Below, one piece after another: positions 2-19,257 of a stretch of DNA of 20,767 nt. The stretch covers positions 1-20,767 of the forward strand of contig CAXBPH010000109.1 in assembly GCA_963977445.1 (NCBI GenBank). Direction: 5' to 3'. Source of the DNA: an uncultured bacterium. Lineage in GTDB: Bacteria; Hydrogenedentota; Hydrogenedentia; Hydrogenedentales; JAEUWI01. The notes under the pieces were generated by a model that did not search any database, was not told the DNA's origin, and saw only the letters and a program-made list of their open reading frames with translations. Position 1 is the stretch's first letter. Every line of letters starts with the position of its first letter. The position numbers were made by a program, and so were the translations under genes.

Positions 2-1414
2 CAGGCCAACGACACCGATCCCATTGACCGGAGTGCTCCGGAAGACACCCTCTTCATGAAAGCCTGTGAAGATTTGCCCGATCACATCGTGTTGCTGGAT
101 GTGCCCGATGTGGATTCCATCGATATGGTTAATTGGGACGTGGCGGAAAACATTCAGGCCGTGTGTGACGTTCTTGTGGCGGTGCTGACGGGTGAAAAGT
201 ATCAGGACGACCAGGTCATCGCCTATTTTCGACAGGCGGCGGAATCGGGCCGGGTCATACTGCCACTCATGAACAAGGCCAACGCTGCCCAGGATTTTGA
301 AGTGGCCCGCCAGCAGCTGGACGATTTTTGCGAGGCCGTGGGTCTGGAAGAGCGGATTTACTTTGCCGTGCCCCATGATTACACGTTGATGGAGACCTGC
401 GACCACCGTATTGCGTCTATAAGCGGCACGGCCGACCTCCGACCTTACCTGGAGCAGCTCGATGTCGTGGAGACCAAAGAGCGGGTGTATCGTGACACCC
501 TGACCCATTTTACCGAGCATACGGTGGAATTTGTGGCACGGATGGACCGGTTTTCCACCAGCCTCGCGGGCGTCAGCGAACTTTTTAAACACCGCGCGCA
601 GGCCGTGGCCGCTACCTACGATCCCGAGCCAGACGCCAAGGTGGGGAAGCTGCTCCACAGCTACATCAAAGCCCGTCGCGGTGTGTTGAGTCGCACCATG
701 GGCAATGTGGGGTCGGCGGTATTCGACCGGGTGGTGCCGGTGGGCCAGGCGGTCGGGCGTATGGTGCGAAGCCGACTTTCCCTGACGAGCGAGCCCAAGA
801 TACCGACGGCCGAAGATGTGCGCGCGCACCACGTGCGCGAACTGGAAATACGTACCTGTGATTTTATTCGGGACTGCGTCGAAGTGGCGCACAATCTCGA
901 TGAACCGGCCCGGGCCATGATTGCCCACCGCTTTGAGTCCCTCGATGTGAGCGCCACGGTGAAGGCCGTGAATGAGGCCACGCTGGTTGACAACAATATC
1001 TCTGAGGCCTTTCGGGCCCACGCCGAAAAGACCCTGGACGAGTGGTGGAACGGTAACAAGATGCGTCGGGTTTTTCTGGTGCAACTTGATGCCATGCTGA
1101 TGCTGGCACCGACGGCGGTGGCCGTGCCCCTGGCCGTTTATGCCGGCGGTGTGGGCGTGCCCGAAGTGGTCGCGGCGACCAGCCCCCTTGCAGGCGAATT
1201 TTTTGCCCGGGTTCTCGAGCATCAATTTTCCGAAAAATGGGTAGACCTCATGGCCCCGTGGCACCGCGAGCAACAGGCCCGTTTTGAGCAGGCCCTGGTG
1301 GCCCACGTGCTCGCGACGGCACTCAGCCCGCTGGCGGAAGCGGCGGACGTGCTGGGTGGTGAGATGGCGGATACCCTTCGAAGGATTCATGAGAAGTGTC
1401 TGAAAGTATCATAA
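2..1414 (+). CDS. Dynamin-like/TRAFAC membrane GTPase, 5'-truncated by the window edge
   Basis: The frame is open from base 2 (CAG GCC AAC...), so the ATG at 56 is internal. It shows a G3-like LLDVPDVDS, a G4-like LMNKAN, a long helical region and a hydrophobic C-terminal segment (MLMLAPTAVAVPLAVYAGGVGV). The P-loop would lie upstream of the window. Confidence 0.75.
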   Translation, partial: QANDTDPIDRSAPEDTLFMKACEDLPDHIVLLDVPDVDSIDMVNWDVAENIQAVCDVLVAVLTGEKYQDDQVIAYFRQAAESGRVILPLMNKANAAQDFEVARQQLDDFCEAVGLEERIYFAVPHDYTLMETCDHRIASISGTADLRPYLEQLDVVETKERVYRDTLTHFTEHTVEFVARMDRFSTSLAGVSELFKHRAQAVAATYDPEPDAKVGKLLHSYIKARRGVLSRTMGNVGSAVFDRVVPVGQAVGRMVRSRLSLTSEPKIPTAEDVRAHHVRELEIRTCDFIRDCVEVAHNLDEPARAMIAHRFESLDVSATVKAVNEATLVDNNISEAFRAHAEKTLDEWWNGNKMRRVFLVQLDAMLMLAPTAVAVPLAVYAGGVGVPEVVAATSPLAGEFFARVLEHQFSEKWVDLMAPWHREQQARFEQALVAHVLATALSPLAEAADVLGGEMADTLRRIHEKCLKVS

Positions 1415-3036
1415 ATGTTATGGAGCACCTGGAGGCCCTGGCGACCTATAATGGTCCCTGGAAGGCCCTCCGTGAAGAAGCGCCCCGGCTGCAGGAGCGC
1501 GTAACCGAATTACGTGCCCGTGAGACGCGCCTCGATGATGTGTTGGTGGTGGCCCTGGTGGGCGGCTCCGGCGTGGGAAAATCCACGTTGTTGAATGCTA
1601 TCGCCGGGGACCAGATCGCCCTGACCTCGGCCATGCGCCCCTGCACCACCAAGCCCCGGGCTTATCATCCCCCGGGAACGGAACTGCCCTTTCACGAGTG
1701 GGAGGGCGTGCCCCGATCGGCCCTGGAGCACCTCGTGCTCATTGATACGCCCGATTCCGACAGCATTGCCCATATTCATCGTGAGCGGACCATCGACGTG
1801 CTGAAGCAATGTGATTTGATCGTATTGTGTGCCAGCACGGAAAAGTATCTCGATGAGGCGACCTGGTCGTTGCTCCGTCCACTCCGTGGTCAGCGTGCCA
1901 TGATTTGCGTGGAGACCAAGGCCGGTCCCCATCCATCGGTAAAAGAACACTGGCTGGAACGTCTCAAGGATCAGGGCTTCGAAGTGGGGCCCTATTTCCG
2001 GGTAAACGCGTTGCGCACCCTGGATAGGAAGATGGCGGGCACACCCGCTGGGGATGACGAATACGATGGCCCGGCCTTTGACGAATTTCTCCGTGAAGAA
2101 CTGACGCGGGAGCGTATCGCGCGCATCAAGCGATCCAACGTGGCGGGCCTCCTCCAGAAGGCGACTGGCCAACTGGAAAGCATCGCCGCCGAAATTCGCC
2201 CTTCGCTGAAGACCCTGGAAACCCGCATCACGGAAGCCGACAAGGCCCTGGCACAGGAGACGCTCACGCTGGTGAGTGATCACCTCTTTGCGGAGCCCCA
2301 CCTGTGGACCTACGCCGTGGGGCGGGAAACGAGCATTCGATCCAAAGGCTTTGTGGGGCTGTGTTATCGCATGGTCGACGGCCTGCGGAATCTGCCCATG
2401 CGGCTGCCCGGCTTGCTGACCTGGAAGGGGCTCAAGAACAGCGATGGCCGGAAGGCCGCCGAAATGCTGACCACCGACGATTTGGTCCAGGCTGGCGCAA
2501 CGATGGCACCCGTGCGGGTGTTGGAATTCTACCGTGCCCAACAGAGTGAGCTCGCCCTGGCCTTTGTGCGCGGGGGTATTGATGCCCTGGATAGCCCGGC
2601 GGGCGAAGCGGCCTTTCAGAAAGAATTGGATACCCGGCTGGTGTCCGTCATTAAAGGGCCGGCGCGGGAACGGGTTCAACAAGGTGCCCGACGTCTGAGC
2701 CGGTGGTTGACGACGGTGGTGCTCGACGCGCCGCCCGTGGCCTTCCTCGTTTACACCGCTTACCTCGTGGTGACGAACTACCTGCATGCCCGCTTTCTCG
2801 ATATTGGCTTTCTCGTCCACTCGGCGGCTGTTTTGTCCATCATAACCGCCGTGGAACTCGTGGGTTTGTCCTTCGCCATTCGGAGTGTGGCCTGGATGGC
2901 GCGCCAGGGAAGTCTGCAGGATCTTCGCGTGGCTTTTCTCGCTCCTCGCCTCGCCTTTCAGCAAGAAAAAGTGGCCCTGTCCGACGTGAAGGAAAATCTG
3001 GAACGCATCGAAGCGGTAAAGGCCATGGTGCTGTAG
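1396..3036 (+). CDS. Dynamin-like/TRAFAC GTPase (50S ribosome-binding GTPase-type domain) with two C-terminal TM helices
   Basis: G1 GGSGVGKST, G2 RPCTT and G3-like LIDTPDSDS are present, then a helical stalk and two hydrophobic segments (PPVAFLVYTAYLVV; FLVHSAAVLSIITAVELVGLSFAI). The GTG start overlaps the upstream gene by 19 nt; ATG at 1420 is an alternative. Confidence 0.8.
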   Translation: MSESIINVMEHLEALATYNGPWKALREEAPRLQERVTELRARETRLDDVLVVALVGGSGVGKSTLLNAIAGDQIALTSAMRPCTTKPRAYHPPGTELPFHEWEGVPRSALEHLVLIDTPDSDSIAHIHRERTIDVLKQCDLIVLCASTEKYLDEATWSLLRPLRGQRAMICVETKAGPHPSVKEHWLERLKDQGFEVGPYFRVNALRTLDRKMAGTPAGDDEYDGPAFDEFLREELTRERIARIKRSNVAGLLQKATGQLESIAAEIRPSLKTLETRITEADKALAQETLTLVSDHLFAEPHLWTYAVGRETSIRSKGFVGLCYRMVDGLRNLPMRLPGLLTWKGLKNSDGRKAAEMLTTDDLVQAGATMAPVRVLEFYRAQQSELALAFVRGGIDALDSPAGEAAFQKELDTRLVSVIKGPARERVQQGARRLSRWLTTVVLDAPPVAFLVYTAYLVVTNYLHARFLDIGFLVHSAAVLSIITAVELVGLSFAIRSVAWMARQGSLQDLRVAFLAPRLAFQQEKVALSDVKENLERIEAVKAMVL

Positions 3037-8860: not shown

Positions 8861-8889
8861 TTGACACGTATGTCCCGTTGGAGTATTAT
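8861..8889 (+). promoter_or_regulatory. Near-consensus sigma70 promoter upstream of the polysaccharide-export operon
   Basis: TTGACA (8861-8866), 17-nt spacer, TATTAT (8884-8889). Confidence 0.75.
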
Positions 8890-9151
8890 TAGAAGCAGCT
8901 AGATCGATTGAAATCAACCGGTTAGCGAATATCCTGGTGTGTCGCTCGCACGGTTTAGCGCGCGAAACGGATGTAGTTCTGCCATTGGTGTGACAGGCTA
9001 TCCCCATTTATAAAACAGACTGATCGCGGCCGCGTGGGGTGCAGGCAGGGATGCCGTGCGACGCGGTTCCCGCCATTAGCGATCCCCTTTTTGGTAGCCC
9101 TCGGCCACCAAACGAGGTCGTTGGTGTTCGGACTCGAATTTAGACAGGTAT

Positions 9152-10177
9152 ATGCGCATGGATGGAACGCAAACGTACTTACGGCAGTTGGGTTTGACGG
9201 AGCAGCCCTTTGCTCCGACAGCAGACCCAGTCTATTTCTATGCCACACGAGGCCACAAAGAGTGCCTTTTTCGCCTCTGGAATGCGGTAGACGCAAGCCA
9301 TGGTATCGCGGTCGTTCTTGGCAACTACGGCACCGGAAAGACCACCCTCCTCCGCAAACTCATGACCGGCATGGCGGCCGACCCCGAGCGGTATTTGACG
9401 GCGGTCATTGGTTCGCCCATTCCTTCGTGGACCAGTTTTGCCCTCCTCGAAAGCATTGTGGCCCAGTTTGGGTTGCGTCCCCACGAACAATCTTTCGTGG
9501 CCTACATGGAAGCGCTCAATCAACATCTGCTCGACAATCGTGGTCGAATTTGCACCCTGATTATTGACGATGCACAGAATCTGAATAAGCGTGGACAGCT
9601 TGAATTGCTCCGCCTCGTTCAAAACCTCGAAACCCAGCAGCAGAAACTACTTAACCTGGTTTTCTTTGCCCAGTTGGAGTGGATTCAGGTATTGCAGGCG
9701 GCCCCCAATTTTGAACAGCGTATCAACCTGACCTGCACCTTAGAATCTATCCAATTTGACGAAGCCCAGCAATTTATTGAGTTCCGACTTCGTCAGGCGG
9801 GCGCCCAGCCGGGTACCGGGCCGGTCTTCGATGAAGGGGCCCTCCGTGCGATCCATGCTTATGCCGAAGGCAGCCCCCGGGTCATGGTTACCTTGTGCCG
9901 AAATTCGCTCTTAATGGCCGCTCAGCTAAAGACGCGGCAGATAACACACGATATAGTTGTACATACGATCGAAAAGACCACCCTTCCGGACCCCGAAAAA
10001 CGCGCGCGGGTTGCGGCGGCGGTGAGTAGCGCTGTCCGACCACCAGCACCCGTCGTGCCTGCGGTGGGCGGTGGTAATCGCGAACGTAATTTGCGGGAAC
10101 AACAGACTCGGGATCAGCGTGCAGCTGATTTACTGTTGCGGTCCGCTCGAATCCGACAGGGTCAGGAATTGGGCTGA
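9152..10177 (+). CDS. ExeA/GspA-family AAA ATPase (general secretion pathway protein A-like), without a TM or peptidoglycan-binding extension
   Basis: N-terminal YLRQLGLTEQPFAPTADPVYFY matches the ExeA Y..fGL...PF...PDP..fy pattern. Walker A GNYGTGKTT, Walker B LIIDDAQNL, ELLRLVQNLE, QRI, FIEFRLRQAG and GSPR are present. ATG at 9158 is an alternative start. Confidence 0.88.
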   Translation: MRMDGTQTYLRQLGLTEQPFAPTADPVYFYATRGHKECLFRLWNAVDASHGIAVVLGNYGTGKTTLLRKLMTGMAADPERYLTAVIGSPIPSWTSFALLESIVAQFGLRPHEQSFVAYMEALNQHLLDNRGRICTLIIDDAQNLNKRGQLELLRLVQNLETQQQKLLNLVFFAQLEWIQVLQAAPNFEQRINLTCTLESIQFDEAQQFIEFRLRQAGAQPGTGPVFDEGALRAIHAYAEGSPRVMVTLCRNSLLMAAQLKTRQITHDIVVHTIEKTTLPDPEKRARVAAAVSSAVRPPAPVVPAVGGGNRERNLREQQTRDQRAADLLLRSARIRQGQELG

Positions 10178-10179
10178 AC

Positions 10180-12240
10180 ATGTCACCAAATGCGGAAAAG
10201 GATCAAGACAGCCACCCGGAAGAGGGCGATCTCCACTTGGAGCAGCCGTTGGATTCCATCGAAGGCAACCTTATGGCCGAAATGCCCACGGACGATCGCT
10301 TTGAAAGCGGCGTACCCGAAGGGCAACGCGCCAATTCCCTGGATTTTATTCAGATGACGGGTCTTACCCGTGCACCGCTCCGCAATGCCTCTGCCGAATC
10401 GATTTCTGAGACCGAGGTTAACGACGATGATCTGAACCCGACGGCGCCGTTGAGTTTTTATGAAAAGGGTGTCACCGATGTGGATGATGGTGACGGCGGT
10501 GACCGCGACGGGCTTTCCGATATGGCCCTGGACGCGAGTCTGATTCCAGAGCGTGGTTCAGACACCCTTCGGAGTGTCCGTGCGTCGTCATCGATAGACG
10601 CGTTTCGCGATATTGTGGCGGGACTCGAAGCGGGCACAGAGAAATTCGAACCGCCGGTACCGTCCTACCCCGAGCCCGAACTTAATGACGTGGTGGAAGC
10701 GGTGCCGGAGAGTTTTGGGGAAGAGCGCTCCGCCTCGTCTGATTTACTGGCCATGTTGGATGCCCTGGACGCCGCCGCGAAACACGCTGATTCGACAGAC
10801 GGTCTTCCTGAAGCGCAGGCCTATGATATGCCCGAGCAGCTAGATGATGAGGACTTGCCTGCCCTTGCAGCACCCATAGATGAACCCGCTCCGGTGGATA
10901 GTGAGGCAATGGTAGATGATTGGGACACCCTCTTTGAATCGGTAACACCCGGTGAGTCGTCGGTAAGTCCTGTTGCCCCAGCGCCTGCTCGCGCGCCCAG
11001 TGCCAGTGGTGCCTTGGCGGAAGCGGAGCAGTTGATGCAATCCCTGGGCCGTGTCAGCAACGACAAGGGTCCCTCCGAAACACCCAAACCGACACCAGTG
11101 CCGGTTCCGAGTCTCTTGCCCACCTATTCCAACACCGTGGCGACGGTGGCCGAGCTCGACGGAGAGCTGGCCTACGACTACAGCGCGGCCCCGACACGTC
11201 GGCGCTCCAAGCGCCACTCCCGAGCCGTCCGTCGTGGTCGAAGGGCGCTCAAGATTATTGTAGCGCTGGTGGTGATTCTGGGCGGGCTTGGCACACTCAT
11301 GATGAAAATTGTTTTGCCTGCGTGGGAAAAGGCCGAAGGCCTGGAGTCCAAGGCAAGCCGATTCATGAATGAAGGCAAGTACGTGGAAGCATCCGACGCC
11401 TACAAGGCCCTCTCCAGGAAACTGGTCGGGGACCCCACCGGCCAGGCCGACGCTCAGTTTAAGGCGGCTTATGTCTTGACCTTGGGTGAGCCCCGCACCG
11501 GCAACGAACGGGACAAGCGGTATCGGTCTGCACTTGAGCAGTTCCAAGCCTTTGTTGATAGCAATCCCCAGCACCCGAAACGTACGCGCGCCCTGACAAT
11601 TATGGGACGCTTGTACTATGAGTTACACGATTACGACGAAGCCATCGACTTGCTCCGCGATCAGGTTGAGCCCCGCCAAGATCCGCAGGCTGCCCTGACG
11701 ATGTTGCGCTATCTGGCCCGGTCTTACAACATGAAGTCGGACTATGAAGCGGCGGAAAGTGCCTATCTGCGTGCCGTTGGTGTGGAAGGAAGTTATGGCG
11801 TTGACCAGGATTATTCCAGCCTGGGCGAAATGTTCAAAGCGCGCGCGGACCTTGCTGTAAACAGTGAGGCTGACAAAGAGCTGTTCATCGAAAAGGCAAA
11901 AAACTACTGGCAACTTGCGATGCAAGTTCCCGGTATAGACCCGGCGCGGAAAGTGGCCTTGCGGGAGAGTCTGAACTGGCTTGATAGCGCGGGCCAGGTT
12001 CCTGCCGACCCAGCGGCCACCGAAGGTATAACGGATTTGGCGGTAGAGACACTGCCGATGGAAACGCCTGACGTTGTTGCAGAGCCCACCCTGCCCGAGC
12101 CGGAGAACCTTCCCACGGAAGGCACGCAGGAAGAGAATCCGAATGCAGAATTGAACGCGGTGCTGGACGTATCGAATGCGTCCATGCTGAGCGGGGAAAC
12201 GGCCCAGGATTCTTCTGCGCCCCCGGTTGAAAACGAATAG
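10180..12240 (+). CDS. Bitopic membrane protein: long acidic low-complexity N-terminus, one TM helix, C-terminal TPR domain
   Basis: The first ~340 aa are Asp/Glu/Pro-rich. A basic patch RRRSKRHSRAVRRGRRALK (11197-11253) precedes the TM IIVALVVILGGLGTLMMKIVL. TPR-like helices follow (ALEQFQAFVDSNPQHPKRTRALTIMGRLYYELHDYDEAIDLL; LRYLARSYNMKSDYEAAESAYLRA). It starts 2 nt after the ATPase stop. Confidence 0.8.
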   Translation: MSPNAEKDQDSHPEEGDLHLEQPLDSIEGNLMAEMPTDDRFESGVPEGQRANSLDFIQMTGLTRAPLRNASAESISETEVNDDDLNPTAPLSFYEKGVTDVDDGDGGDRDGLSDMALDASLIPERGSDTLRSVRASSSIDAFRDIVAGLEAGTEKFEPPVPSYPEPELNDVVEAVPESFGEERSASSDLLAMLDALDAAAKHADSTDGLPEAQAYDMPEQLDDEDLPALAAPIDEPAPVDSEAMVDDWDTLFESVTPGESSVSPVAPAPARAPSASGALAEAEQLMQSLGRVSNDKGPSETPKPTPVPVPSLLPTYSNTVATVAELDGELAYDYSAAPTRRRSKRHSRAVRRGRRALKIIVALVVILGGLGTLMMKIVLPAWEKAEGLESKASRFMNEGKYVEASDAYKALSRKLVGDPTGQADAQFKAAYVLTLGEPRTGNERDKRYRSALEQFQAFVDSNPQHPKRTRALTIMGRLYYELHDYDEAIDLLRDQVEPRQDPQAALTMLRYLARSYNMKSDYEAAESAYLRAVGVEGSYGVDQDYSSLGEMFKARADLAVNSEADKELFIEKAKNYWQLAMQVPGIDPARKVALRESLNWLDSAGQVPADPAATEGITDLAVETLPMETPDVVAEPTLPEPENLPTEGTQEENPNAELNAVLDVSNASMLSGETAQDSSAPPVENE

Positions 12241-12306
12241 TCCAGCGAACAGAGCGAAAAGATTTGGCGTTGAGCCAACGTAAATAAACCAGGTGGAGTG
12301 GAAACT

Positions 12307-13788
12307 ATGCCATCCCAGATTAGAGTATTCATTCGTGCGTGCCTCGTGGCGACCTTCGCCATCTGCTCCGCATCGTTATATGCCGAAGAAGACATGTCGG
12401 GCGAGGCGCTGAAGCCGGGCGATTTGGTCTTTGTGAATGTGCACCGTCAGCCCGAGCTTTCCACCACGACCCAGCTGGATAGTCAGGGCAATGTGGAAAT
12501 GCCCTATATCGGCAATGTTTCCCTGAAGGGATTGAATCTGGGCGACGCCGGTGCGCGGGTATCGATGGGGCTGAAGAGCGTGCTCAAGAATCCCCGGGTT
12601 ACCGTCACTCGCAGCGTCGAGGGTATGGGGGCGCTTCCCGGCGGCTTCATGCGCACCCAATCGATGCAGACCCAGGTCGTGCCGCTGAACAATTCGGATG
12701 CAGGCACCTTGGAAAAAGCCTTGTCCGGTATGTCCACGGCTGGCGGTAGTGTCAGCTATGATCCGAATACGAACAGTCTGATCCTGACGGATGAGCCACC
12801 CGTCCTGCAGAATATGTTGTCAGTAATTCGCGAGCTGGACCAGATGGAATCCCAGATAACGCAGGTGCTCATCGAGGCCAAGATTGTAGAAGTGGAAACG
12901 GCCGCCGCCAAAGAATTGGGTGTGCGCTGGTTTGCCCAGGGCGACCACGTGGGTACGGGCTATACGCCGCCCCCGCGGCAGGATGCCTTGTTGAATTCTA
13001 TCCGTCAATCGGTGGGGCCGAGTTACAACGAGTCCCTTGATTCCGGCGCCCGCGGCGGCGGTATCAGTCGGCGTTTCGTTGACAATACCCGGTTTGATCG
13101 TCGATTGCAGGTCCCGGTCCAATTGGCCGCGCCCGGCCAGATGTTCCTGGGTTACATGAACAGTGGCATCGATCTGGGCGTTATGCTGGATGCCCTCGTG
13201 GCCGACGACAAGGCCGAATTGCTGGCCTCCCCCTATGTGGGGACTATCAATCACAAGGCGGCCACCATCCGTATGACCGAGGAATTTCCGTATTCCGAAG
13301 TTGGCTCGGCCGGATTATCTACGGTGGTAAATGTAAACTTTCTGGATATTGGTATCGTCCTCGAGGTCGTGCCGCATGTGCGCCGCGATCCCTCCGGAGA
13401 ACGGTATGTATTGGTAGAGCTCGCACCGGAAGTCTCCACGGCAGTTGGCGTGTCCAATGGTGTGCCCGTGCGGGCCGTGCGGAGCAGCAATAGTCAGCGA
13501 ATTGTACGCGATGGCCAATCCCTTGTTATCGGCGGCATTGTCATGGCCGACAACCATACGGTGATTCAGAAGCTTCCCGGACTCGGTAATCTTCCCATCT
13601 TTGGCAATCTCTTCAAGCATAAAGAACAGAGCCGCAGCAGTCGCGAATTGATGATCTTTGTTACGCCCACGATTCACGACCGGCCAGAAGATATTCGATG
13701 GGAACGTAGCCTCGAAATGGACGGATTTGGTCACAACGATGCCTTTCTTGCTGCGCTCGAATCCCGTGCAGAAGTACGGAAGGACTAG
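12307..13788 (+). CDS. Fusion of a polysaccharide biosynthesis/export (Wza D1, Poly_export) domain with a type II/IV secretin (Secretin_N + Secretin)
   Basis: Signal peptide (..SASLYA/EE). Poly_export signature LKPGDLVFVNV..PELS....LDSQGNVEMPYIGNVSLKGLNL...LKNPRVTV (~12409-12612). N3/NolW-like TQVVPLNNSDA..SVSYDPNTNSLILTD..IRELD (~12670-12843). Secretin core QVLIEAKIVEV...ELGVRW...LLASP...DIGIVLEVVPHV...VRDGQSLVIGG...KLPGLGNLPIFGNLFK...RELMIFVTPTI. ATG 12307 has GGAG 8 nt upstream and is preferred over GTG 12298. Confidence 0.88.
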   Translation: MPSQIRVFIRACLVATFAICSASLYAEEDMSGEALKPGDLVFVNVHRQPELSTTTQLDSQGNVEMPYIGNVSLKGLNLGDAGARVSMGLKSVLKNPRVTVTRSVEGMGALPGGFMRTQSMQTQVVPLNNSDAGTLEKALSGMSTAGGSVSYDPNTNSLILTDEPPVLQNMLSVIRELDQMESQITQVLIEAKIVEVETAAAKELGVRWFAQGDHVGTGYTPPPRQDALLNSIRQSVGPSYNESLDSGARGGGISRRFVDNTRFDRRLQVPVQLAAPGQMFLGYMNSGIDLGVMLDALVADDKAELLASPYVGTINHKAATIRMTEEFPYSEVGSAGLSTVVNVNFLDIGIVLEVVPHVRRDPSGERYVLVELAPEVSTAVGVSNGVPVRAVRSSNSQRIVRDGQSLVIGGIVMADNHTVIQKLPGLGNLPIFGNLFKHKEQSRSSRELMIFVTPTIHDRPEDIRWERSLEMDGFGHNDAFLAALESRAEVRKD

Positions 13789-13791
13789 CCT

Positions 13792-16047
13792 ATGTCCAGC
13801 ATTGATGCACCCGTTCTAGAAGAGACCACGCGGGAAAACCAGGACAACCAGTTTCGTTTTTTGTGGAATGTGGTGTCGGAGCGTTGGATCCTCCTGGTGA
13901 TCGGTACCCTGTTGGGGGCCATCTCTTTTGGGGGCATCACGTGGCTGAACCAGACGACCACGCCCACCCGTTACAACAGTCTCGGCACGTTGGTCATCTC
14001 CCAAGGTCGCACGGCATTCGTCCAATCTCTCAATACAACGGCGAGTGCGTCCCTGTATGAAATGACGGCCGAAAAGCTCGTCAATGGCACCCGGGCTACC
14101 TTGCTCGCAGAAGAAGTTGCCAAGGCACTTATACAAAAAGATATTGCCACCGGCGGTAAATACAGTAGTGTGGCCACCCCGGAAGAATTTCGCGCCCAGG
14201 TGAACCGTATCGAAAGCAGAATCAACATGGTGGCCCTGGATCCCCAGAATATAGAGATCCGAGTCCAGGGGTGTGAAACGGCACACGAAGCCACCGATAT
14301 TGCCGAATATGCGACACGGGCCTTCCTTAAGCTGAACCAGCAGGTTCATTTTGAATTGGCCAGCCAGAACCACAATGACGCCCTGGCGATGATCAAGCTA
14401 CTTCGCGATGACCTTACCGAGGCCGAAAAGGCCCGCTTGGCGTTCTTGTCTAAGCACGGCTTTCGGGCATACCAGGATATTGATGATCTGATGACCAGCA
14501 AGGAAAATACCTTGCGGGAAATCGAATCCACCAAAGAAATCACTCAGCAGAATCTCGCCAAGCTGGATGCGGAACTCGCTCAAGCTCGGGAGCAGTTCTC
14601 CGATTCACTGGATCAGCCCAGCGATACGATGATCAAGGGGCTGCTCACTGATCTGGACAAGCTTACACAAGAGCAGTTCACCCTGAGCGCCGTTTATCAG
14701 CCGGGCTGGCCGCGCCTTCTCGAGTTGGAAGAAGAGATTGCCGAAACGACGGGCCTTATTCGCAGGGCGGAAGGACAGCTTAGTTCCGGTGCTTTGGGTG
14801 GCAGTGATATCTGGACGCGGCGCAACGAAATTTACCGCCAGCAGAAAGAATATCACCAGCAGTTGGCGAGTCTCGAAGCGCGGGAAGAATCTATAAAAAA
14901 ACAACAGGAAGAATTGCTTCCACGGGTGCCCGAGCTGGCCAATATCAAGTTGGATGCGGAGCGGCTCAAACGGGAAGTGGACGCCATCGAAGACCGGTTG
15001 AATCAGGCTTCGAATCGCGAAATGGAGATTCGTGCTGCCATCGAGCGTGGACTAGGGTCCGTCGAGCGCAAAGATTCCATTGCGGCCGCTATCCCTATTT
15101 CATCCCAGAGTGGTAAAGAGAAATGGGTGAATTTTGCCATTGGCGCGATCATCGGATTTGTAGTTACCTTCGGGTTTGCTATGGTCACCGAATATAACGA
15201 TACCTCTATTCGCAGTATCGAAGACGTAAACGAGTACATTGGCCTCGAAGTGATCGGTACCATACCCCGGATGCGCTTTGGTCGACCACGGGGTGGTCGA
15301 CGACGAAGGGCGACTTACGTGAGCACGGTGGACGAGGAGCAGATTGACTCCTGTATCGTGACGCAGCATGATCCCAAGTCTCCTATTTCAGAAGCCTATC
15401 GTACCTTACGTACGAACTATCAATTCGCGACCATTAAGCAAAAGCCCAAAACGGTCATGGTGACCAGTGCGGTGCCCGGCGAAGGCAAGACGACGACGGC
15501 CGTGAATCTGGCCGTGACGATGGCTGATCGCGGAATGCGCGTGCTAATTGTCGATACCGACTTGCGGCGCCCTAATGTGCACCGCGTGTTGCGTATGGAA
15601 CGTGGTCCGGGCCTCGCAGACGTATTGCGGGAAGGTCTGGATCCCAAGAGTGTAATTCGGCCCACCCGCATTGAAAACCTCTGGATTATTTCCAGTGGGC
15701 GGGTTCCGCCGAATCCATCCGAATTAATCGGCTCAGACCACATGGCCGAGTTAATGGGCCAGTTGGGCGATGAGTTTGACCTGGTTATCTGCGATGCGCC
15801 TTCTGTACTCGTTGTGACGGACCCGGTTCTTCTTGCCACCCATGTGGATACCTGCATGATGGTGGTCTCCACCAACAACGCACGTCGCGAAACCGTCATC
15901 CGCGCGAAAAAACTGCTGACGACCGCTCAGGTCTCGGTGGCTGGTGTCGTGGTGAATGGTCTGGAAACTACCCGACGCCACTACTACTACTATTATTACT
16001 ACTACGATGACGGCTCTTCGGGACGCCGCAAGTGGTATCACTTCTAG
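13792..16047 (+). CDS. wzc: Polysaccharide co-polymerase / bacterial tyrosine autokinase (Wzc, PCP-2a)
   Basis: TM1 WILLVIGTLLGAISFGGITWL, a long coiled-coil periplasmic region and TM2 FAIGAIIGFVVTFGFAMV. Kinase motifs: PKSPISEAYRTLRTN, Walker A SAVPGEGKTT, A' IVDTDLRRP, PPNPSELI, Walker B VICDAPS, and a C-terminal Tyr cluster HYYYYYYYYDD. Confidence 0.93.
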   Translation: MSSIDAPVLEETTRENQDNQFRFLWNVVSERWILLVIGTLLGAISFGGITWLNQTTTPTRYNSLGTLVISQGRTAFVQSLNTTASASLYEMTAEKLVNGTRATLLAEEVAKALIQKDIATGGKYSSVATPEEFRAQVNRIESRINMVALDPQNIEIRVQGCETAHEATDIAEYATRAFLKLNQQVHFELASQNHNDALAMIKLLRDDLTEAEKARLAFLSKHGFRAYQDIDDLMTSKENTLREIESTKEITQQNLAKLDAELAQAREQFSDSLDQPSDTMIKGLLTDLDKLTQEQFTLSAVYQPGWPRLLELEEEIAETTGLIRRAEGQLSSGALGGSDIWTRRNEIYRQQKEYHQQLASLEAREESIKKQQEELLPRVPELANIKLDAERLKREVDAIEDRLNQASNREMEIRAAIERGLGSVERKDSIAAAIPISSQSGKEKWVNFAIGAIIGFVVTFGFAMVTEYNDTSIRSIEDVNEYIGLEVIGTIPRMRFGRPRGGRRRRATYVSTVDEEQIDSCIVTQHDPKSPISEAYRTLRTNYQFATIKQKPKTVMVTSAVPGEGKTTTAVNLAVTMADRGMRVLIVDTDLRRPNVHRVLRMERGPGLADVLREGLDPKSVIRPTRIENLWIISSGRVPPNPSELIGSDHMAELMGQLGDEFDLVICDAPSVLVVTDPVLLATHVDTCMMVVSTNNARRETVIRAKKLLTTAQVSVAGVVVNGLETTRRHYYYYYYYYDDGSSGRRKWYHF

Positions 16048-16097
16048 AATCCCGCCAGGAGTTCTCACGGTCCCGACGTAGCGGGTAAGGGAAGCAC

Positions 16098-17615
16098 ATG
16101 TCATTCTTCCGCTCAGAACGCGGTATCGGTCGTGGTGAAGTTGCCGAGAGCCAGCTGGAAGTCCCTATCTTCGCGGTCTTCATGCTTGTTTGCAGCATGA
16201 TACTGGTTGCGCAGCACCTCCTTTTGGAAAACGATAGCCTTACCGCCGCGCTTTCCATCAGTATGGTCGTGTTCGGGGGCACCGTAGTGCGCGTTGAGTT
16301 CGGCCTGTTTGTGTTGCTTATCGCCATGTTGCTGTCGCCAGAGATCGAACTACGTGCCGGGGTTAACGGGGACCGCAGTCTGAACATCCGCTACGATGAT
16401 ATCCTGATCATCGTTATTTTTCTCGGCGTCATGGTCAAACTCGTATTCGAGGGGCGTTTGATGCTCTGGCAGCCCAGCCCCATCAACGCTGGCATCGTGG
16501 CCTACTATGCGGTCTGTATCTTTGCCACCTTGCTGGCCTACGAGCGCAGTCTGCCTGCCTGGGACAAGCGGACCGCTTTCTTTGTCATGTTGAAGATGCT
16601 GGAGTTCTACCTGATATTCTTCATGGTGGCCCACTCCGTTCGCACGTCGAAAGATATTCGAACGCCTCTGGCACTATTTTTTGTCGTCATGTTGATTGTG
16701 AGCGCCTACGGCATTTACTCCATTGGAACGACGCCACGGGTGAGTGCGCCCTTTGAAAAAGGGGGTACGGAGCCCAATACCCTGGGCGGCTATCTCGTAA
16801 TTTGCCTCTGTGTGGCCCTCGGGTTGTGTCTCCAGGCCCGACGCTATCGAATAAAACTGATCTATCTCGCCATCGTAGTTCTGGGCACAATCCCCCTGCT
16901 CTATACGCTGTCGCGGGCGTCCTATATCGCGATCATCGTGGGATTTACCGTCATTGGAGTCATGAGTCGAAAATACCTCGTGCTGGTTGCGCTAGCGGCC
17001 ATCCTGTTGAGTTCGACGCTCATTATGCCCACGGAAGTCATTGAACGTGTCGCCTTCACCGTTCAGGAAGAGGGTGGGCGTGATCTGACGGTCGGTGGAC
17101 GAGAGCTTGGTGTTAAGGTGGATAAGTCGACCTACGAGCGGGTACACGTCTGGCGAAAAGTGGGATTTATTCTCAGCCTGGGACCCCAATTCTTTTTGTT
17201 CGGTGGTGGCGTTTCCTGGGAGTCGGTGCTCGACAGTCAATACGCCCGTGTGCTGCTGGAAACCGGTACCGTTGGGCTTCTTGCCTTTGTATTTCTGCTG
17301 TATCAGCTACTGAGAACCACCCGCCAGGCCTATCGGTGGACAGATGACTGGATGGGCCGGGGCATCGCGTTGGGCATGTTTGGGGCCACAGCGGCCCTCG
17401 TGGTTCACTCCTTTGGAACGATTTCATTCCTGATCGTTCGCATCATGGAGCCCTACTGGTTTCTTATTGCCCTGACCGTAACGATTCGCAATGAAGCTAT
17501 CTTCAGGCATCTGCAACGCCACCGCGCCCAACAGCGTATACGGCAACCGAAAATTGTAGAACCCGCCGTTGAAGAACTTCCTCTCGAAGCCGGTGTGGGC
17601 GCTGCCAGCCAATAG
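16098..17615 (+). CDS. O-antigen ligase / Wzy polymerase family (Wzy_C) membrane protein
   Basis: There are ten or more hydrophobic segments. Family-like motifs are EPNTLGGYL, TLSRASYIA, STYERVHVW and FGGG...DSQYARVLLETGTVGL. It lies directly downstream of wzc. Confidence 0.8.
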   Translation: MSFFRSERGIGRGEVAESQLEVPIFAVFMLVCSMILVAQHLLLENDSLTAALSISMVVFGGTVVRVEFGLFVLLIAMLLSPEIELRAGVNGDRSLNIRYDDILIIVIFLGVMVKLVFEGRLMLWQPSPINAGIVAYYAVCIFATLLAYERSLPAWDKRTAFFVMLKMLEFYLIFFMVAHSVRTSKDIRTPLALFFVVMLIVSAYGIYSIGTTPRVSAPFEKGGTEPNTLGGYLVICLCVALGLCLQARRYRIKLIYLAIVVLGTIPLLYTLSRASYIAIIVGFTVIGVMSRKYLVLVALAAILLSSTLIMPTEVIERVAFTVQEEGGRDLTVGGRELGVKVDKSTYERVHVWRKVGFILSLGPQFFLFGGGVSWESVLDSQYARVLLETGTVGLLAFVFLLYQLLRTTRQAYRWTDDWMGRGIALGMFGATAALVVHSFGTISFLIVRIMEPYWFLIALTVTIRNEAIFRHLQRHRAQQRIRQPKIVEPAVEELPLEAGVGAASQ

Positions 17616-17631
17616 GGGGCTACTGCCAACC

Positions 17632-19134
17632 TTAGTGGCCGCGCACGCCTTCGAGACGGGGCACCGCGTAGGTGCCCATGCGTATCTGGTCAAACATGCT
17701 CTTCTCGGTAGCAAATTCCTGTGCCCGTTCCAGACTGATTTGCTTCTGATTGAACAAATTGAAGAGGTAGTGTTCAAAGAGGAAGGAGTGGGAAACAGAC
17801 TGCTGCATCCCAATTCGTATGTGATCCGTGCTGCCTTCCATGATGCCGTCGGCCACGGCCTTTACATCATTGAGCATCATTTCCAGGGCAGGAATGCGGC
17901 CACCACCAATTTTTGGAACCAGGCGCTGGCAAATGACGCATTGCAGGCAATCACGTAACTGCAATTTGACGAGGTCCCGTTCTATCGGGTCGAAGAAACT
18001 GAGCACCCGGTTAACCACCTCCGCCGCCGTGTTGGCGTGGAGGGTGCTGATGACCAAGTGACCCGTGGCGGCCGCATTGATGGCGGAGCGAATTGTATCG
18101 GGGTCACGCATTTCACCAATGAGGATGACATCGGGATCGTGACGCAGGGCACCGGTCACGGCGTGAAAGAACGATTTCACATCCATACCGAGATTCCGCT
18201 GCGAAATGATGGACTTCTTGTTTGAGTGAACGAACTCGATTGGATTTTCGATGGTCAGAATATGGCTGGAGCGGGTGGTGTTGATCCAGTCAATCAACGC
18301 GGCCACCGTGGTGGTCTTTCCGCTCCCTGTCATGCCCGTAACGAGCAACAGACCCCGGTGTAACTCCGCCAGCTTTACCATGGTGTCCGTGGGTACGTGG
18401 AGCTCTTCAAAGCTCGGCACCGTTTCCGGAAGATAGCGAAAGGTACAGTGGGGCGCGCCTGATTTTATGAAGGCCGAGACTCTGGAATAGCCCAGGCCCG
18501 CCTGGTGATAATTGAAACTCGTCTGCTTGTCCGCGATGAATTCGTTCCAGGCATCATCGAGGGAGATTTCCTTAATCAGGGAGAGAATCTGCACCGCTGA
18601 AAGGGGACCCATAATATCGGCTGGTCGGGTTTCCCCATCGATTCGAAACACGGGGCGCACCCCGGGCGAAAGGTGCACATCACTGGCGCGGTATTGGATC
18701 ATGGCCTTAAACAACAGCTCAGCGCTGATGTGATCGAGGCGATATTTACCCCCTTCCGCGCGCCAGACTTCGGGAATGGGCATGGCCTTCGCAAAGGTGT
18801 CGAAGGCCTCCATTGCGGCATGGGCGGTGTCGGGGGAGGTGGGCGCAAAGGTGTAAAACACGCAACCTTCTTCCACATGGCTGGTGCCGTGGGGCGAGAG
18901 GGTCGCAATCGATGCGTCGAGAGCGTCTCGCTCGGGCCATGTCTCGGGCACGCGAATCAAGAAATGATCAAAGGGGCCTTCGAATTCGGAGCGCTCGGCT
19001 TCCAGATGGAGGTCCTCGTTCCAGGCAGTAATGCGCCGGGGAACCCCTTCCGTTCGGAGAAGATGTTTCTCCAGAAGTCCTATAACACCACGAAACGATT
19101 GTTGGGCACCGGTACCCATAAGAAAAACAGCCAC
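17632..19134 (-). CDS. pilT: PilT/PilU-family type IV pilus retraction-type ATPase with an N-terminal extension
   Basis: ASDVHLSPGVRPVFRIDG, Walker A GMTGSGKTT, Asp box TIENPIEFVH, ALRHDPDVILIGEMRD, His box TGHLVISTLH, VICQRLVP and GRIPALE. I moved the start from 19233 to GTG 19134, where the RBS GGAGAGAGGT lies 6 nt upstream; ATG 19119 is an alternative. Confidence 0.88.
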   Translation of the reverse strand: MAVFLMGTGAQQSFRGVIGLLEKHLLRTEGVPRRITAWNEDLHLEAERSEFEGPFDHFLIRVPETWPERDALDASIATLSPHGTSHVEEGCVFYTFAPTSPDTAHAAMEAFDTFAKAMPIPEVWRAEGGKYRLDHISAELLFKAMIQYRASDVHLSPGVRPVFRIDGETRPADIMGPLSAVQILSLIKEISLDDAWNEFIADKQTSFNYHQAGLGYSRVSAFIKSGAPHCTFRYLPETVPSFEELHVPTDTMVKLAELHRGLLLVTGMTGSGKTTTVAALIDWINTTRSSHILTIENPIEFVHSNKKSIISQRNLGMDVKSFFHAVTGALRHDPDVILIGEMRDPDTIRSAINAAATGHLVISTLHANTAAEVVNRVLSFFDPIERDLVKLQLRDCLQCVICQRLVPKIGGGRIPALEMMLNDVKAVADGIMEGSTDHIRIGMQQSVSHSFLFEHYLFNLFNQKQISLERAQEFATEKSMFDQIRMGTYAVPRLEGVRGH

Positions 19135-19187
19135 GACAATACCTCTCTCCAGAGATTGACCAGTCTGTAATGTAAAAACTCTTCGCC

Positions 19188-19216
19188 ATGGTACGCCATC
19201 CTTGTGTACTATGCAA
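19188..19216 (-). promoter_or_regulatory. Putative sigma70 promoter for the PilT-family gene
   Basis: The minus strand reads TTGCAT-N17-TACCAT, 53 nt upstream of GTG 19134. Confidence 0.5.
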
Positions 19217-19227
19217 ACCCGTTTTTC

Positions 19228-19257
19228 TTGCACCCCAAAAGGGGACTGCCGTATAAT
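19228..19257 (+). promoter_or_regulatory. Putative sigma70 promoter for the aldehyde dehydrogenase
   Basis: TTGCAC (19228-19233)-N18-TATAAT (19252-19257). Confidence 0.55.

Follow-up and report, generated by a model that had tools for sequence, protein, structure and literature searches.

A conserved five-gene module of Hydrogenedentota encodes a Poly_export–secretin chimera beside a Wzc-type kinase: a candidate polysaccharide exporter

Polysaccharides of the Wzy and ABC pathways are on record as crossing the outer membrane by one of three routes: the helix barrel of Wza, KpsD-like proteins, or a truncated outer-membrane polysaccharide export (OPX) protein combined with a PgaA-like porin. Here we describe a five-gene module in the genome of an uncultured bacterium of the Hydrogenedentota, an uncultured phylum noted chiefly for breaking down polymers and lipids. 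The third gene of the module (gene 3) encodes a chimera of an OPX domain and a secretin, and the fourth a Wzc-type tyrosine autokinase. A natural chimera of this kind in a conserved Wzc operon would add a fourth route to the three. Throughout, the window is the whole 20.8-kb contig that carries the module (C109; 20,767 nucleotides), part of a 7.1-Mb genome in 464 contigs that is 94% complete.

On the capsule side, the module can be compared with the Wza–Wzc pair of Escherichia coli group 1 capsule and colanic acid. In both cases a Poly_export domain (called D1 in Wza) is encoded directly before a polysaccharide co-polymerase of type 2a (PCP-2a), that is, a Wzc-type autokinase with a tyrosine-rich tail. 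Unlike Wza, the gene 3 protein lacks SLBB domains (D2 and D3), a Wza_C helix and a conserved lipoprotein cysteine, and its membrane part is a predicted secretin barrel. There is no gene for a Wzb phosphatase in the module, and known secretins are 12- to 15-mers whereas Wza and Wzc are octamers.

On the secretion side, the GspA/GspB pair (ExeA/ExeB) and the MshM/MshN/MshL trio resemble the module in that an AAA_22 ATPase stands beside a bitopic partner and a secretin. They differ from it in that the ATPase of the module is soluble, its partner is a tetratricopeptide-repeat (TPR) protein without a GspB or MshN match, and the module has no pilin or pseudopilin genes. A further likeness is to the XrtA/PEP-CTERM exopolysaccharide (EPS) loci, with which the module shares the families TIGR03015, TIGR03007, TIGR03018, TIGR03027 and TIGR03097, all of them below cut-off, and a TPR protein. 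Exosortase, EpsI and PEP-CTERM genes, however, are absent from the module, and the genome has a locus of that type of its own (on contig C52), with a Wza-like exporter and no secretin.

Two other systems bring together parts of the same kinds. As described in the accessible text of an OPX survey (10.1101/2022.02.11.480155), the class 3 OPX proteins of Myxococcus xanthus (WzaX/S/B with WzpX/S/B) are like the module in that an OPX part unable to cross the outer membrane alone is combined with a β-barrel. In that system an 18-stranded, PgaA-like porin forms a barrel of its own and the OPX protein keeps its SLBB domains, whereas in gene 3 a secretin of the multimeric type is fused in the same chain. 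The best structural match to D1 of gene 3 is itself a class 3 protein, WzaB (9n9a). Secretins are, moreover, needed for slime secretion in cyanobacteria and myxobacteria (Nat Commun 2025, PMC12475490). In that case, as for the module here, a secretin of the PilQ/GspD family is the proposed outer-membrane route of an exopolymer. According to the passages searched in that report, these are ordinary secretins of type II secretion systems (T2SS) or type IV pili (T4P); how the polymer reaches them is left open, and an OPX fusion is not mentioned. In the module, by comparison, the link to the Wzc pathway would be built into gene 3.

The five genes of the module are as follows.

9152..10177, + strand: gene 1, soluble P-loop ATPase (AAA_22) resembling GspA/ExeA, 341 aa (public records probably begin it at the ATG at 9158)
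10180..12240, + strand: gene 2, bitopic inner-membrane protein with a transmembrane segment and TPRs, 686 aa
12298..13788, + strand: gene 3, OPX–secretin chimera, 496 aa from a GTG start (public records use the ATG at 12307)
13792..16047, + strand: gene 4, tyrosine autokinase of the Wzc type (PCP-2a), tail rich in tyrosine, 751 aa
16098..17615, + strand: gene 5, polytopic membrane protein of the Wzy/O-antigen-ligase (Wzy_C) superfamily, 505 aa

The gaps between the genes are 2, 57, 3 and 50 nt, and the second becomes 66 nt when counted from the ATG at 12307. With that start, the layout is the one given in a preliminary description of the window, which had listed five co-oriented genes with these domains and gaps of 2, 66, 3 and 50 nt.

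Gene 3 begins with a signal peptide. Three Pfam families exceed their cut-offs within this single open reading frame (ORF): Poly_export (PF02563, residues 37–104, 55.6 bits against a cut-off of 28), Secretin_N (PF03958, residues 125–186, 51 bits) and Secretin (PF00263, residues 299–459, 117.9 bits). The same set of three domains was found in 119 of the 120 homologues listed, the exception being a fragment of 314 aa. No SLBB or SLBB_2 domain was detected in gene 3 by Pfam at E ≤ 0.001; the same search did detect SLBB in the other OPX protein of the genome and in the unrelated hits P0278, P0373 and P0297. Pfam reported neither a Wza_C helix, the C-terminal part being the secretin, nor a secretin N0 (PF21305) or STN domain. 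Alignment of 14 homologues shows no conservation of the N-terminal cysteine, so the protein is probably not a lipoprotein.

A profile of 14 gene 3 homologues was searched against the sequences of the PDB. Residues 27–115 matched D1 of OPX proteins (WzaB, 9n9a, E = 1.5e-11; Wza, 2j58, residues 64–152, E = 4e-6), residues 116–185 matched the N-domains of GspD and HofQ, and residues 286–463 matched the secretin cores of GspD, PilQ, InvG, RcpA and pIV (5wq7, E = 1.4e-48). An AlphaFold2 (AF2) monomer model was built from 56 sequences, the alignment of which has a mean column identity of 51%. Confidence in this model is high for D1, for the N-domain and over most of the barrel. Foldseek matched the model to GspD with E = 1e-20 and its D1 to known D1 folds with a root-mean-square deviation of 1.0–1.4 Å over 71–84 columns, the values being 1.0 Å over 71 columns for WzaB (9n9a) and 1.3 Å over 84 columns for Wza (2j58). 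Judged by its domain matches, gene 3 joins T2SS-like and capsule-like parts in one polypeptide. The proposal that the locus is built from parts of these two kinds, made at first inspection from the gene content, is thus supported within a single gene. Two names are given to it by database pipelines, "polysaccharide biosynthesis/export family protein" and "GspD/PulD secretin".

We found no description of a Poly_export–secretin fusion or of this operon in the literature, although the supplementary tables of the OPX survey preprint may list such proteins. As far as its accessible text goes, that survey (10.1101/2022.02.11.480155) distinguishes three OPX classes, all of the form Poly_export–SLBB(n), and uses the word "secretin" once, in an unrelated sense. 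Since all three classes have this form, the chimera belongs to none of them.

D1 of the chimera holds the N-terminal position at which T2SS and T4P secretins have N0. N0 is the domain by which a secretin binds its inner-membrane platform (GspC or PilP). In the cryo-EM structure of the E. coli Wza–Wzc complex, the forearm of the Wzc helical arm contacts D1 of Wza, and deletion of D1 abolishes the co-localisation of Wza and Wzc, according to the accessible text of the report (PMC12881504). This contact and this loss of co-localisation identify D1 as a docking module for Wzc in E. coli. By analogy, the simplest reading of the chimera is a domain swap of D1 for N0 that would re-address the secretin to a Wzc platform.

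Conservation of gene order among relatives had been set beforehand as a check on the module. A pattern scan of 185,579 species genomes yielded 78 distinct loci, of which 51 (L008–L058) match the chimera family at 39–85% identity and 27 (L059–L085) match the secretin part only. As recorded, 37 of the 51 chimera loci carry labels beginning with Hydrogenedent, nine are "uncultured Nitrospirales/Nitrospiraceae", two "uncultured bacterium", one "metagenome", one Bathyarchaeia and one Rhodothermaeota. When the window proteins were searched by tblastn, the order ATPase, transmembrane TPR protein, OPX–secretin, Wzc and Wzy_C-like protein, on one strand, was complete in 32 of the 51. Each gene absent from the remaining 19 falls beyond a contig end, and not one of the 51 loci has a contig that continues with a gene absent or moved. 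Genes 3 and 4 were never apart in the 49 loci that reach gene 4. The 27 other loci match from residue 114 or later at 27–32% identity and have none of the other four genes. Because the same five genes occur in the same order and on the same strand in all 51 chimera loci, the arrangement is not due to chance.

The stop codon of gene 1 and the start codon of gene 2 overlap or lie no more than 10 nt apart in 27 of 39 loci; the start-codon rule that was applied favours small gaps at this place, and the aligned N-termini support the choices made. One locus counted as syntenic, L043 (5465–8714), has a chimera match that ends at query residue 353 and a Wzc match that begins at residue 440, a pattern that may reflect a gap, masked bases or a decayed copy. 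By our own count, the chimera is present at full or near full length (best E < 1e-50) in 67 of 135 Hydrogenedentota species genomes.

Gene 4 has the properties of a PCP-2a (Wzc) tyrosine autokinase. It scores above the cut-off of the bacterial tyrosine kinase model (TIGR01007, 180.7 bits against 108.05), has a cluster of eight consecutive tyrosines near its C-terminus, and contains two hydrophobic segments, read directly from the sequence at about residues 33–52 and 446–466, that would flank a periplasmic domain. The E. coli Wzc structures 7nhr and 9r62 match residues 343–750 with E of about 1e-39. With the equivalog models for Wzc itself, the protein is far below cut-off.

Gene 5 belongs to a family with a mean column identity of 61%, 25 of 26 members of which match Wzy_C at E ≤ 0.01. 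Its AF2 model has a predicted local distance difference test (pLDDT) score of 79.2 and a predicted template-modelling (pTM) score of 0.81. The top Foldseek match of this model is the O-antigen ligase WaaL (7tpg_B, E = 1.3e-6, template-modelling scores of 0.53/0.64), followed by RodA and FtsW; no Wzy polymerase structure was among the hits for comparison. As modelled, the protein sits in the Wzy/WaaL/SEDS fold group, and its fold fits a polymerase and a ligase alike. Among NCBIfam models the protein is related only to TIGR03097 ([quoted passage not shown], 29.3 bits) and to IctB, below cut-off. The original label of gene 5, Wzy/ligase, is in keeping with these matches, the closest solved fold being that of a ligase.

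Gene 1 has the most conserved product among the family alignments compared, with a mean column identity of 66% and homologues that are 54–89% identical to the window protein. It scores 67 bits with AAA_22 and 151.8 bits with TIGR03015, the XrtA-associated ATPase, which is the nearest curated model (cut-off 324.5). A profile of the gene 1 family matched just generic AAA+ proteins of the PDB (Cdc6 and RuvB, E about 0.004–0.008). Over its 341 aa, only AAA-type families were found, and neither a membrane segment nor a peptidoglycan-binding domain. The ExeA ATPase of Aeromonas carries both a membrane segment and a periplasmic peptidoglycan-binding domain.

Gene 2 contains TPRs at residues 445–505 and a single hydrophobic segment at about residues 358–378, which follows an arginine-rich stretch. 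The N-terminal half is acidic, apparently disordered and predicted to be cytoplasmic; the TPR domain is predicted to be periplasmic, and the protein ends in an acidic tail. Mean column identity in the family is only 23% (29 sequences). The residues D38, R40, G44, F56, G61 and F93 are nevertheless invariant, and the family keeps the cytoplasmic motifs D38-R40-G44 to F56-I57-M59-G61 and S92-F93-E95-G97-V98-D100-V101-D102 as well as the basic stretch, the membrane segment and the TPR domain. A Pfam search of the cytoplasmic part at E ≤ 1 gave no match. Four of the 29 aligned homologues (L016:3295-5337, L029:7612-9891, L035:1682-3784 and L036:7749-9950) end in a C-terminal LysM domain (E = 1e-9 to 7e-15), where the window protein has its acidic tail; these LysM ends suggest a link of gene 2 to the cell wall. 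No GspB, MshN, AlgK, PgaA or BcsC family was matched above cut-off, and the TPR part matched generic TPR, YbgF and BamD models only, below cut-off. The earlier likening of this protein to the TPR scaffolds of AlgK, PgaA and BcsC thus finds no backing from those families.

Gene 1 fits the pattern of GspA/ExeA: it encodes an ATPase of the AAA_22 type and stands, with the gene for a bitopic partner, next to a secretin gene. In JGI records its orthologues go by "type II secretory pathway predicted ATPase ExeA" or by "general secretion pathway protein A". The description of gene 1 as ExeA-like is accordingly apt for the AAA_22 domain and the database names; it does not extend to the membrane and peptidoglycan-binding parts, or to the partner, a TPR protein without a GspB or MshN match. 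By analogy, genes 1 and 2 resemble GspA/GspB (ExeA/ExeB) in pairing a soluble ATPase with a bitopic periplasmic partner, the parts being distributed differently.

A sole secretin in the service of a canonical T2SS or T4P had been named at the outset as the finding that would speak against the module. The genome has seven Secretin-domain matches, that is, six besides gene 3. A GspD-type gene adjoins an N0 ORF and GspC, and another secretin gene lies in a T4P cluster of the PilMNOPQ kind, with PilM and PilO; contigs C358 and C97 hold the GspC–GspD and PilM–PilO–secretin clusters. We therefore rejected gene 3 as the T2SS or T4P secretin of the genome: with separate, dedicated secretins elsewhere, that of gene 3 is not borrowed from either system. 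Tandem secretin-domain genes (381 and 424 aa) at C10:40125-42541 (L102:10125-12541) have no recognisable T2SS or T4P partners nearby, and further short secretin genes are present on C231 and C95.

Poly_export genes number only two in the genome. The second encodes a Wza-like exporter in an exosortase-type EPS locus (C52:21755-31551; L097), together with a sigma-54 activator, a Wzc-like protein, a 1102-aa PrsT-like TPR protein, an XrtA-like exosortase and EpsI. A better match to the TIGR03015 ATPase (314.7 bits) than gene 1 lies within an 827-aa open frame at C99:20443-21240. The possibility that the module is part of the exosortase EPS locus was rejected, that locus being on other contigs with its own exporter. 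The module is therefore a separate system, related at a distance to the families of exosortase-type EPS loci and below the cut-offs of their models.

The module is bounded by a promoter-like site on one side and by a convergent gene on the other, as had been noted from the start.

8861..8889, + strand: sigma-70-like promoter, TTGACA-17 nt-TATTAT, agreeing with the consensus at 11 of 12 positions, about 260 nt before gene 1
8890..9151, + strand: putative long 5' leader of about 260 nt
17632..19233, − strand: PilT/PilU-family ATPase, convergent (TIGR01420, 343.7 bits against a cut-off of 319.1)

Both promoter hexamers are invariant in all seven aligned upstream regions (380 nt; the window and six relatives), the mean column identity of which is 59%. 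That the hexamers are invariant while their flanks diverge is good comparative support for a real promoter. A search of the whole window with Rfam at gathering score gave no family match, which indicates that the long leader contains no known riboswitch. Just downstream of the −10 hexamer lies a near-palindrome, CGATTGA-AA-TCAACCG (8905–8920), which is perfect in L009 and L010 and different in L011–L013; it may serve as an operator or form a stem where the leader begins.

Across 12 diverse loci the flanks of the module are variable, with two recurring neighbours, the PilT-like gene and a gene for an FHA-GAF-HD protein. The stop codon of the PilT-like gene is 16 nt from that of gene 5. The PilT-like gene is found in this convergent position directly after gene 5 in the window and in 11 of the 39 loci with at least 1800 nt of downstream DNA, and is missing from the site in the other 28; it is a possible accessory gene outside the conserved core. 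Its product has an extra N-terminal region of about 170 aa, for which Pfam gave nothing at E ≤ 1 (residues 1–175). The syntenic orthologues keep this region, their tblastn hits beginning at residues 6–33. The many PilT paralogues of the genome have no such extension and align only from residue ~140–175.

The FHA-GAF-HD protein (HD_5, HD-GYP-like; ~570–610 aa) is encoded divergently, no more than 1.2 kb upstream of the module, in 21 of the 34 loci with enough upstream DNA (for example, L015:4022-5818, − strand). It is likely to be a dedicated regulator and possibly acts through a cyclic dinucleotide. In the genome of the window, its orthologue is unlinked (C81:15403-17166, 62% identity) and its place is taken by a divergent hydantoinase/oxoprolinase gene, the upstream neighbour of the module.

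Taken together, we think it fairly probable that the five genes are one operon, which supplies the core for polymerisation and export in a surface-polysaccharide pathway of the Wzx/Wzy type, with the secretin as the outer-membrane channel docked to Wzc through D1. In such a pathway, lipid-linked repeat units would be made and flipped by the products of genes elsewhere in the genome. At the periplasmic face, the gene 5 protein would act on the units as either a polymerase of the Wzy type or a ligase. Gene 4, to judge from its family, would supply the inner-membrane and periplasmic cage, and its tyrosine-rich tail would regulate output. The architecture of the chimera and the solved E. coli Wza–Wzc complex suggest that the helical arm of Wzc docks on the D1 ring at the base of the gene 3 multimer. 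Replacement of N0 by D1 would thereby re-address the secretin from a pilus or pseudopilus platform to that of Wzc, and the polymer would exit through the gated secretin barrel. In the weakest step of this scheme, the cytoplasmic ATPase of gene 1 may bind the conserved cytoplasmic motifs of the TPR protein, and the two may jointly aid the assembly of the secretin multimer through the cell wall, as GspA/GspB (ExeA/ExeB) or MshM/MshN would do. The five proteins had initially been put forward as one trans-envelope machine. One conserved functional unit is well supported by fusion and synteny; the physical machine, the ExeAB-like part of genes 1 and 2, a polymer-guiding TPR domain, transcription as one unit and the substrate are what we infer. 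We see an even chance that the module represents a fourth class, by structure, of proteins that export polysaccharides across the outer membrane, one in which a Wza-type D1 in place of N0 wires a secretin barrel to a Wzc co-polymerase.

Several observations weigh against this reading. At the proposed docking site, our reading of the HMMER alignment places Wza interface residue D99 opposite an invariant arginine (R50) and Y155 opposite a valine. Among the interface residues D99, E102 and Y155, only E102 aligns with a glutamate (E53), which is at least 90% conserved in the alignment of 14 sequences and below 90% in that of 56. By PDB chain counts, secretin entries have 12–15 chains and Wza and Wzc entries eight, so a D1 ring on a secretin would mismatch an octameric Wzc. 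The AF2 model of gene 3 is only moderate overall (mean pLDDT 73.9, pTM 0.48), most of residues 205–301 being below 50. The alignment of gene 4 to E. coli Wzc is limited to the portion given above, and no Wzz Pfam domain was reported in the protein. For gene 5, the window protein scores 23 bits with Wzy_C, under the cut-off of 31.7; its family profile had no match at E ≤ 1 among PDB sequences, and its nearest solved fold is the ligase WaaL rather than a polymerase. The ATPase of gene 1 is without the membrane and peptidoglycan-binding parts of Aeromonas ExeA. Gene content is a further difficulty: the window has no gene for a glycosyltransferase, Wzx or an initiating transferase, glycosyltransferase genes follow the module in just four of 12 diverse loci (L015, L021, L033 and L047), and neither Wzx nor an initiating transferase adjoins it in any of the 12. 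Finally, the module is missing from 68 of the 135 genomes of the phylum, including 23 of 23 in one family and 10 of 10 in another, and is therefore not a core envelope function.

A different product is conceivable. The module might be a glycoconjugate machine in which gene 5 is a WaaL-like ligase that moves a lipid-linked glycan to a lipid or protein acceptor, resembling the "putative O-glycosylation ligase" of exosortase-linked EPS loci, and the remainder of the module delivers or displays the product. The match of gene 5 to WaaL as its best solved fold, its restriction to TIGR03097 and IctB among NCBIfam relatives, and the position of TIGR03015 as the nearest model for gene 1 all point that way. 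These family-model scores are, however, far under their cut-offs; no exosortase was found in the window or in the flanks examined, the exosortase of the genome and its 314.7-bit TIGR03015 match being on other contigs; and Foldseek does not separate the polymerases from the ligases of the gene 5 fold, no Wzy polymerase structure being among its hits. A Wzc partner is, besides, typical of polymer export, and we regard a glycoconjugate machine as rather unlikely. Another way to divide the evidence is to accept channel and Wzc coupling as proposed above but to see in genes 1 and 2 an ATP-driven regulator or energiser, with the TPR domain handling polymer in the periplasm in the manner of AlgK, PgaA or BcsC. 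The conservation of gene 1, the highest among the families compared, suggests more than a chaperone role, and in exosortase-type EPS loci a related ATPase occurs with a TPR protein but no secretin. Against this, the LysM ends of four gene 2 homologues point to the cell wall and not to the polymer, and the TPR part has only its sub-threshold matches to generic TPR, YbgF and BamD models. We give such a role for genes 1 and 2 a low probability.

The module might also be two units that travel together. Genes 1–3 would then be a secretin with its assembly factors for a pilus or for protein secretion, perhaps working with the PilT-like ATPase, genes 4 and 5 an unrelated polysaccharide pair, and D1 a mere periplasmic ring-former. 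An ATPase, a TPR protein and a secretin do occur as a trio in the loci of the mannose-sensitive haemagglutinin (MSHA) pilus (MshM, MshN and MshL). The convergent PilT/PilU-family gene that directly follows gene 5, both in the window and in 11 of 39 loci, would suit a pilus, and the gaps of 57–66 nt and 50 nt are roomy enough for internal promoters. But the PilT-like gene is missing from 28 of these 39 sites, and the window contains no pilin, pseudopilin, prepilin peptidase, PilC/GspF platform, PilB/GspE assembly ATPase or GspC/PilP. The supposed boundary between the units would, moreover, fall in the 3-nt gap between genes 3 and 4, the two genes that were never apart, and in E. coli docking on Wzc is through D1 (PMC12881504, accessible text). 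Two independent units are thus quite improbable.

If the operon is indeed a polymerisation and export core with a secretin channel, several consequences would follow. Secretins would be real polysaccharide conduits in a Wzy-type pathway, and Wzc would have to fit its own 8-fold ring to one of 12- to 15-fold symmetry or take on a new stoichiometry. The GspA/GspB-like pair of ATPase and TPR protein would be a general device for secretin assembly, beyond protein secretion. Swapping one small periplasmic domain, N0 for D1, could suffice to move a secretin between inner-membrane machines. The coupling of a polymer pathway to a secretin would be written into one gene, which makes the question open to testing with recombinant proteins. 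The operon would also mark about half of the species genomes of the phylum as likely makers of surface polysaccharides.

The chimera may not be confined to this phylum. A search of 1.84 billion representative sequences with residues 30–200 returned the chimera family and one distant member, P0270, which is 28% identical, colinear over its full length and composed of the same three domains; it has a cluster mate, P0396. P0270 matched none of the 135 Hydrogenedentota genomes at E ≤ 1e-60 and may thus come from another lineage. Nor did it match any of 401 genomes from the phylum that includes genome G135 at E ≤ 1e-50, and two metagenome scans (with P0270 and with P0396) gave no locus. The library of representatives also contained a giant secretin of 3491 aa (P0249), with N0, 23 Secretin_N stretches and a C-terminal secretin domain. 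Lastly, the left end of the window (56–3036) has two overlapping ORFs on the + strand, one of 452 aa without a family and one of 546 aa with a GTPase or dynamin-like P-loop; this pair is present upstream of the module in L009 and L010 too.

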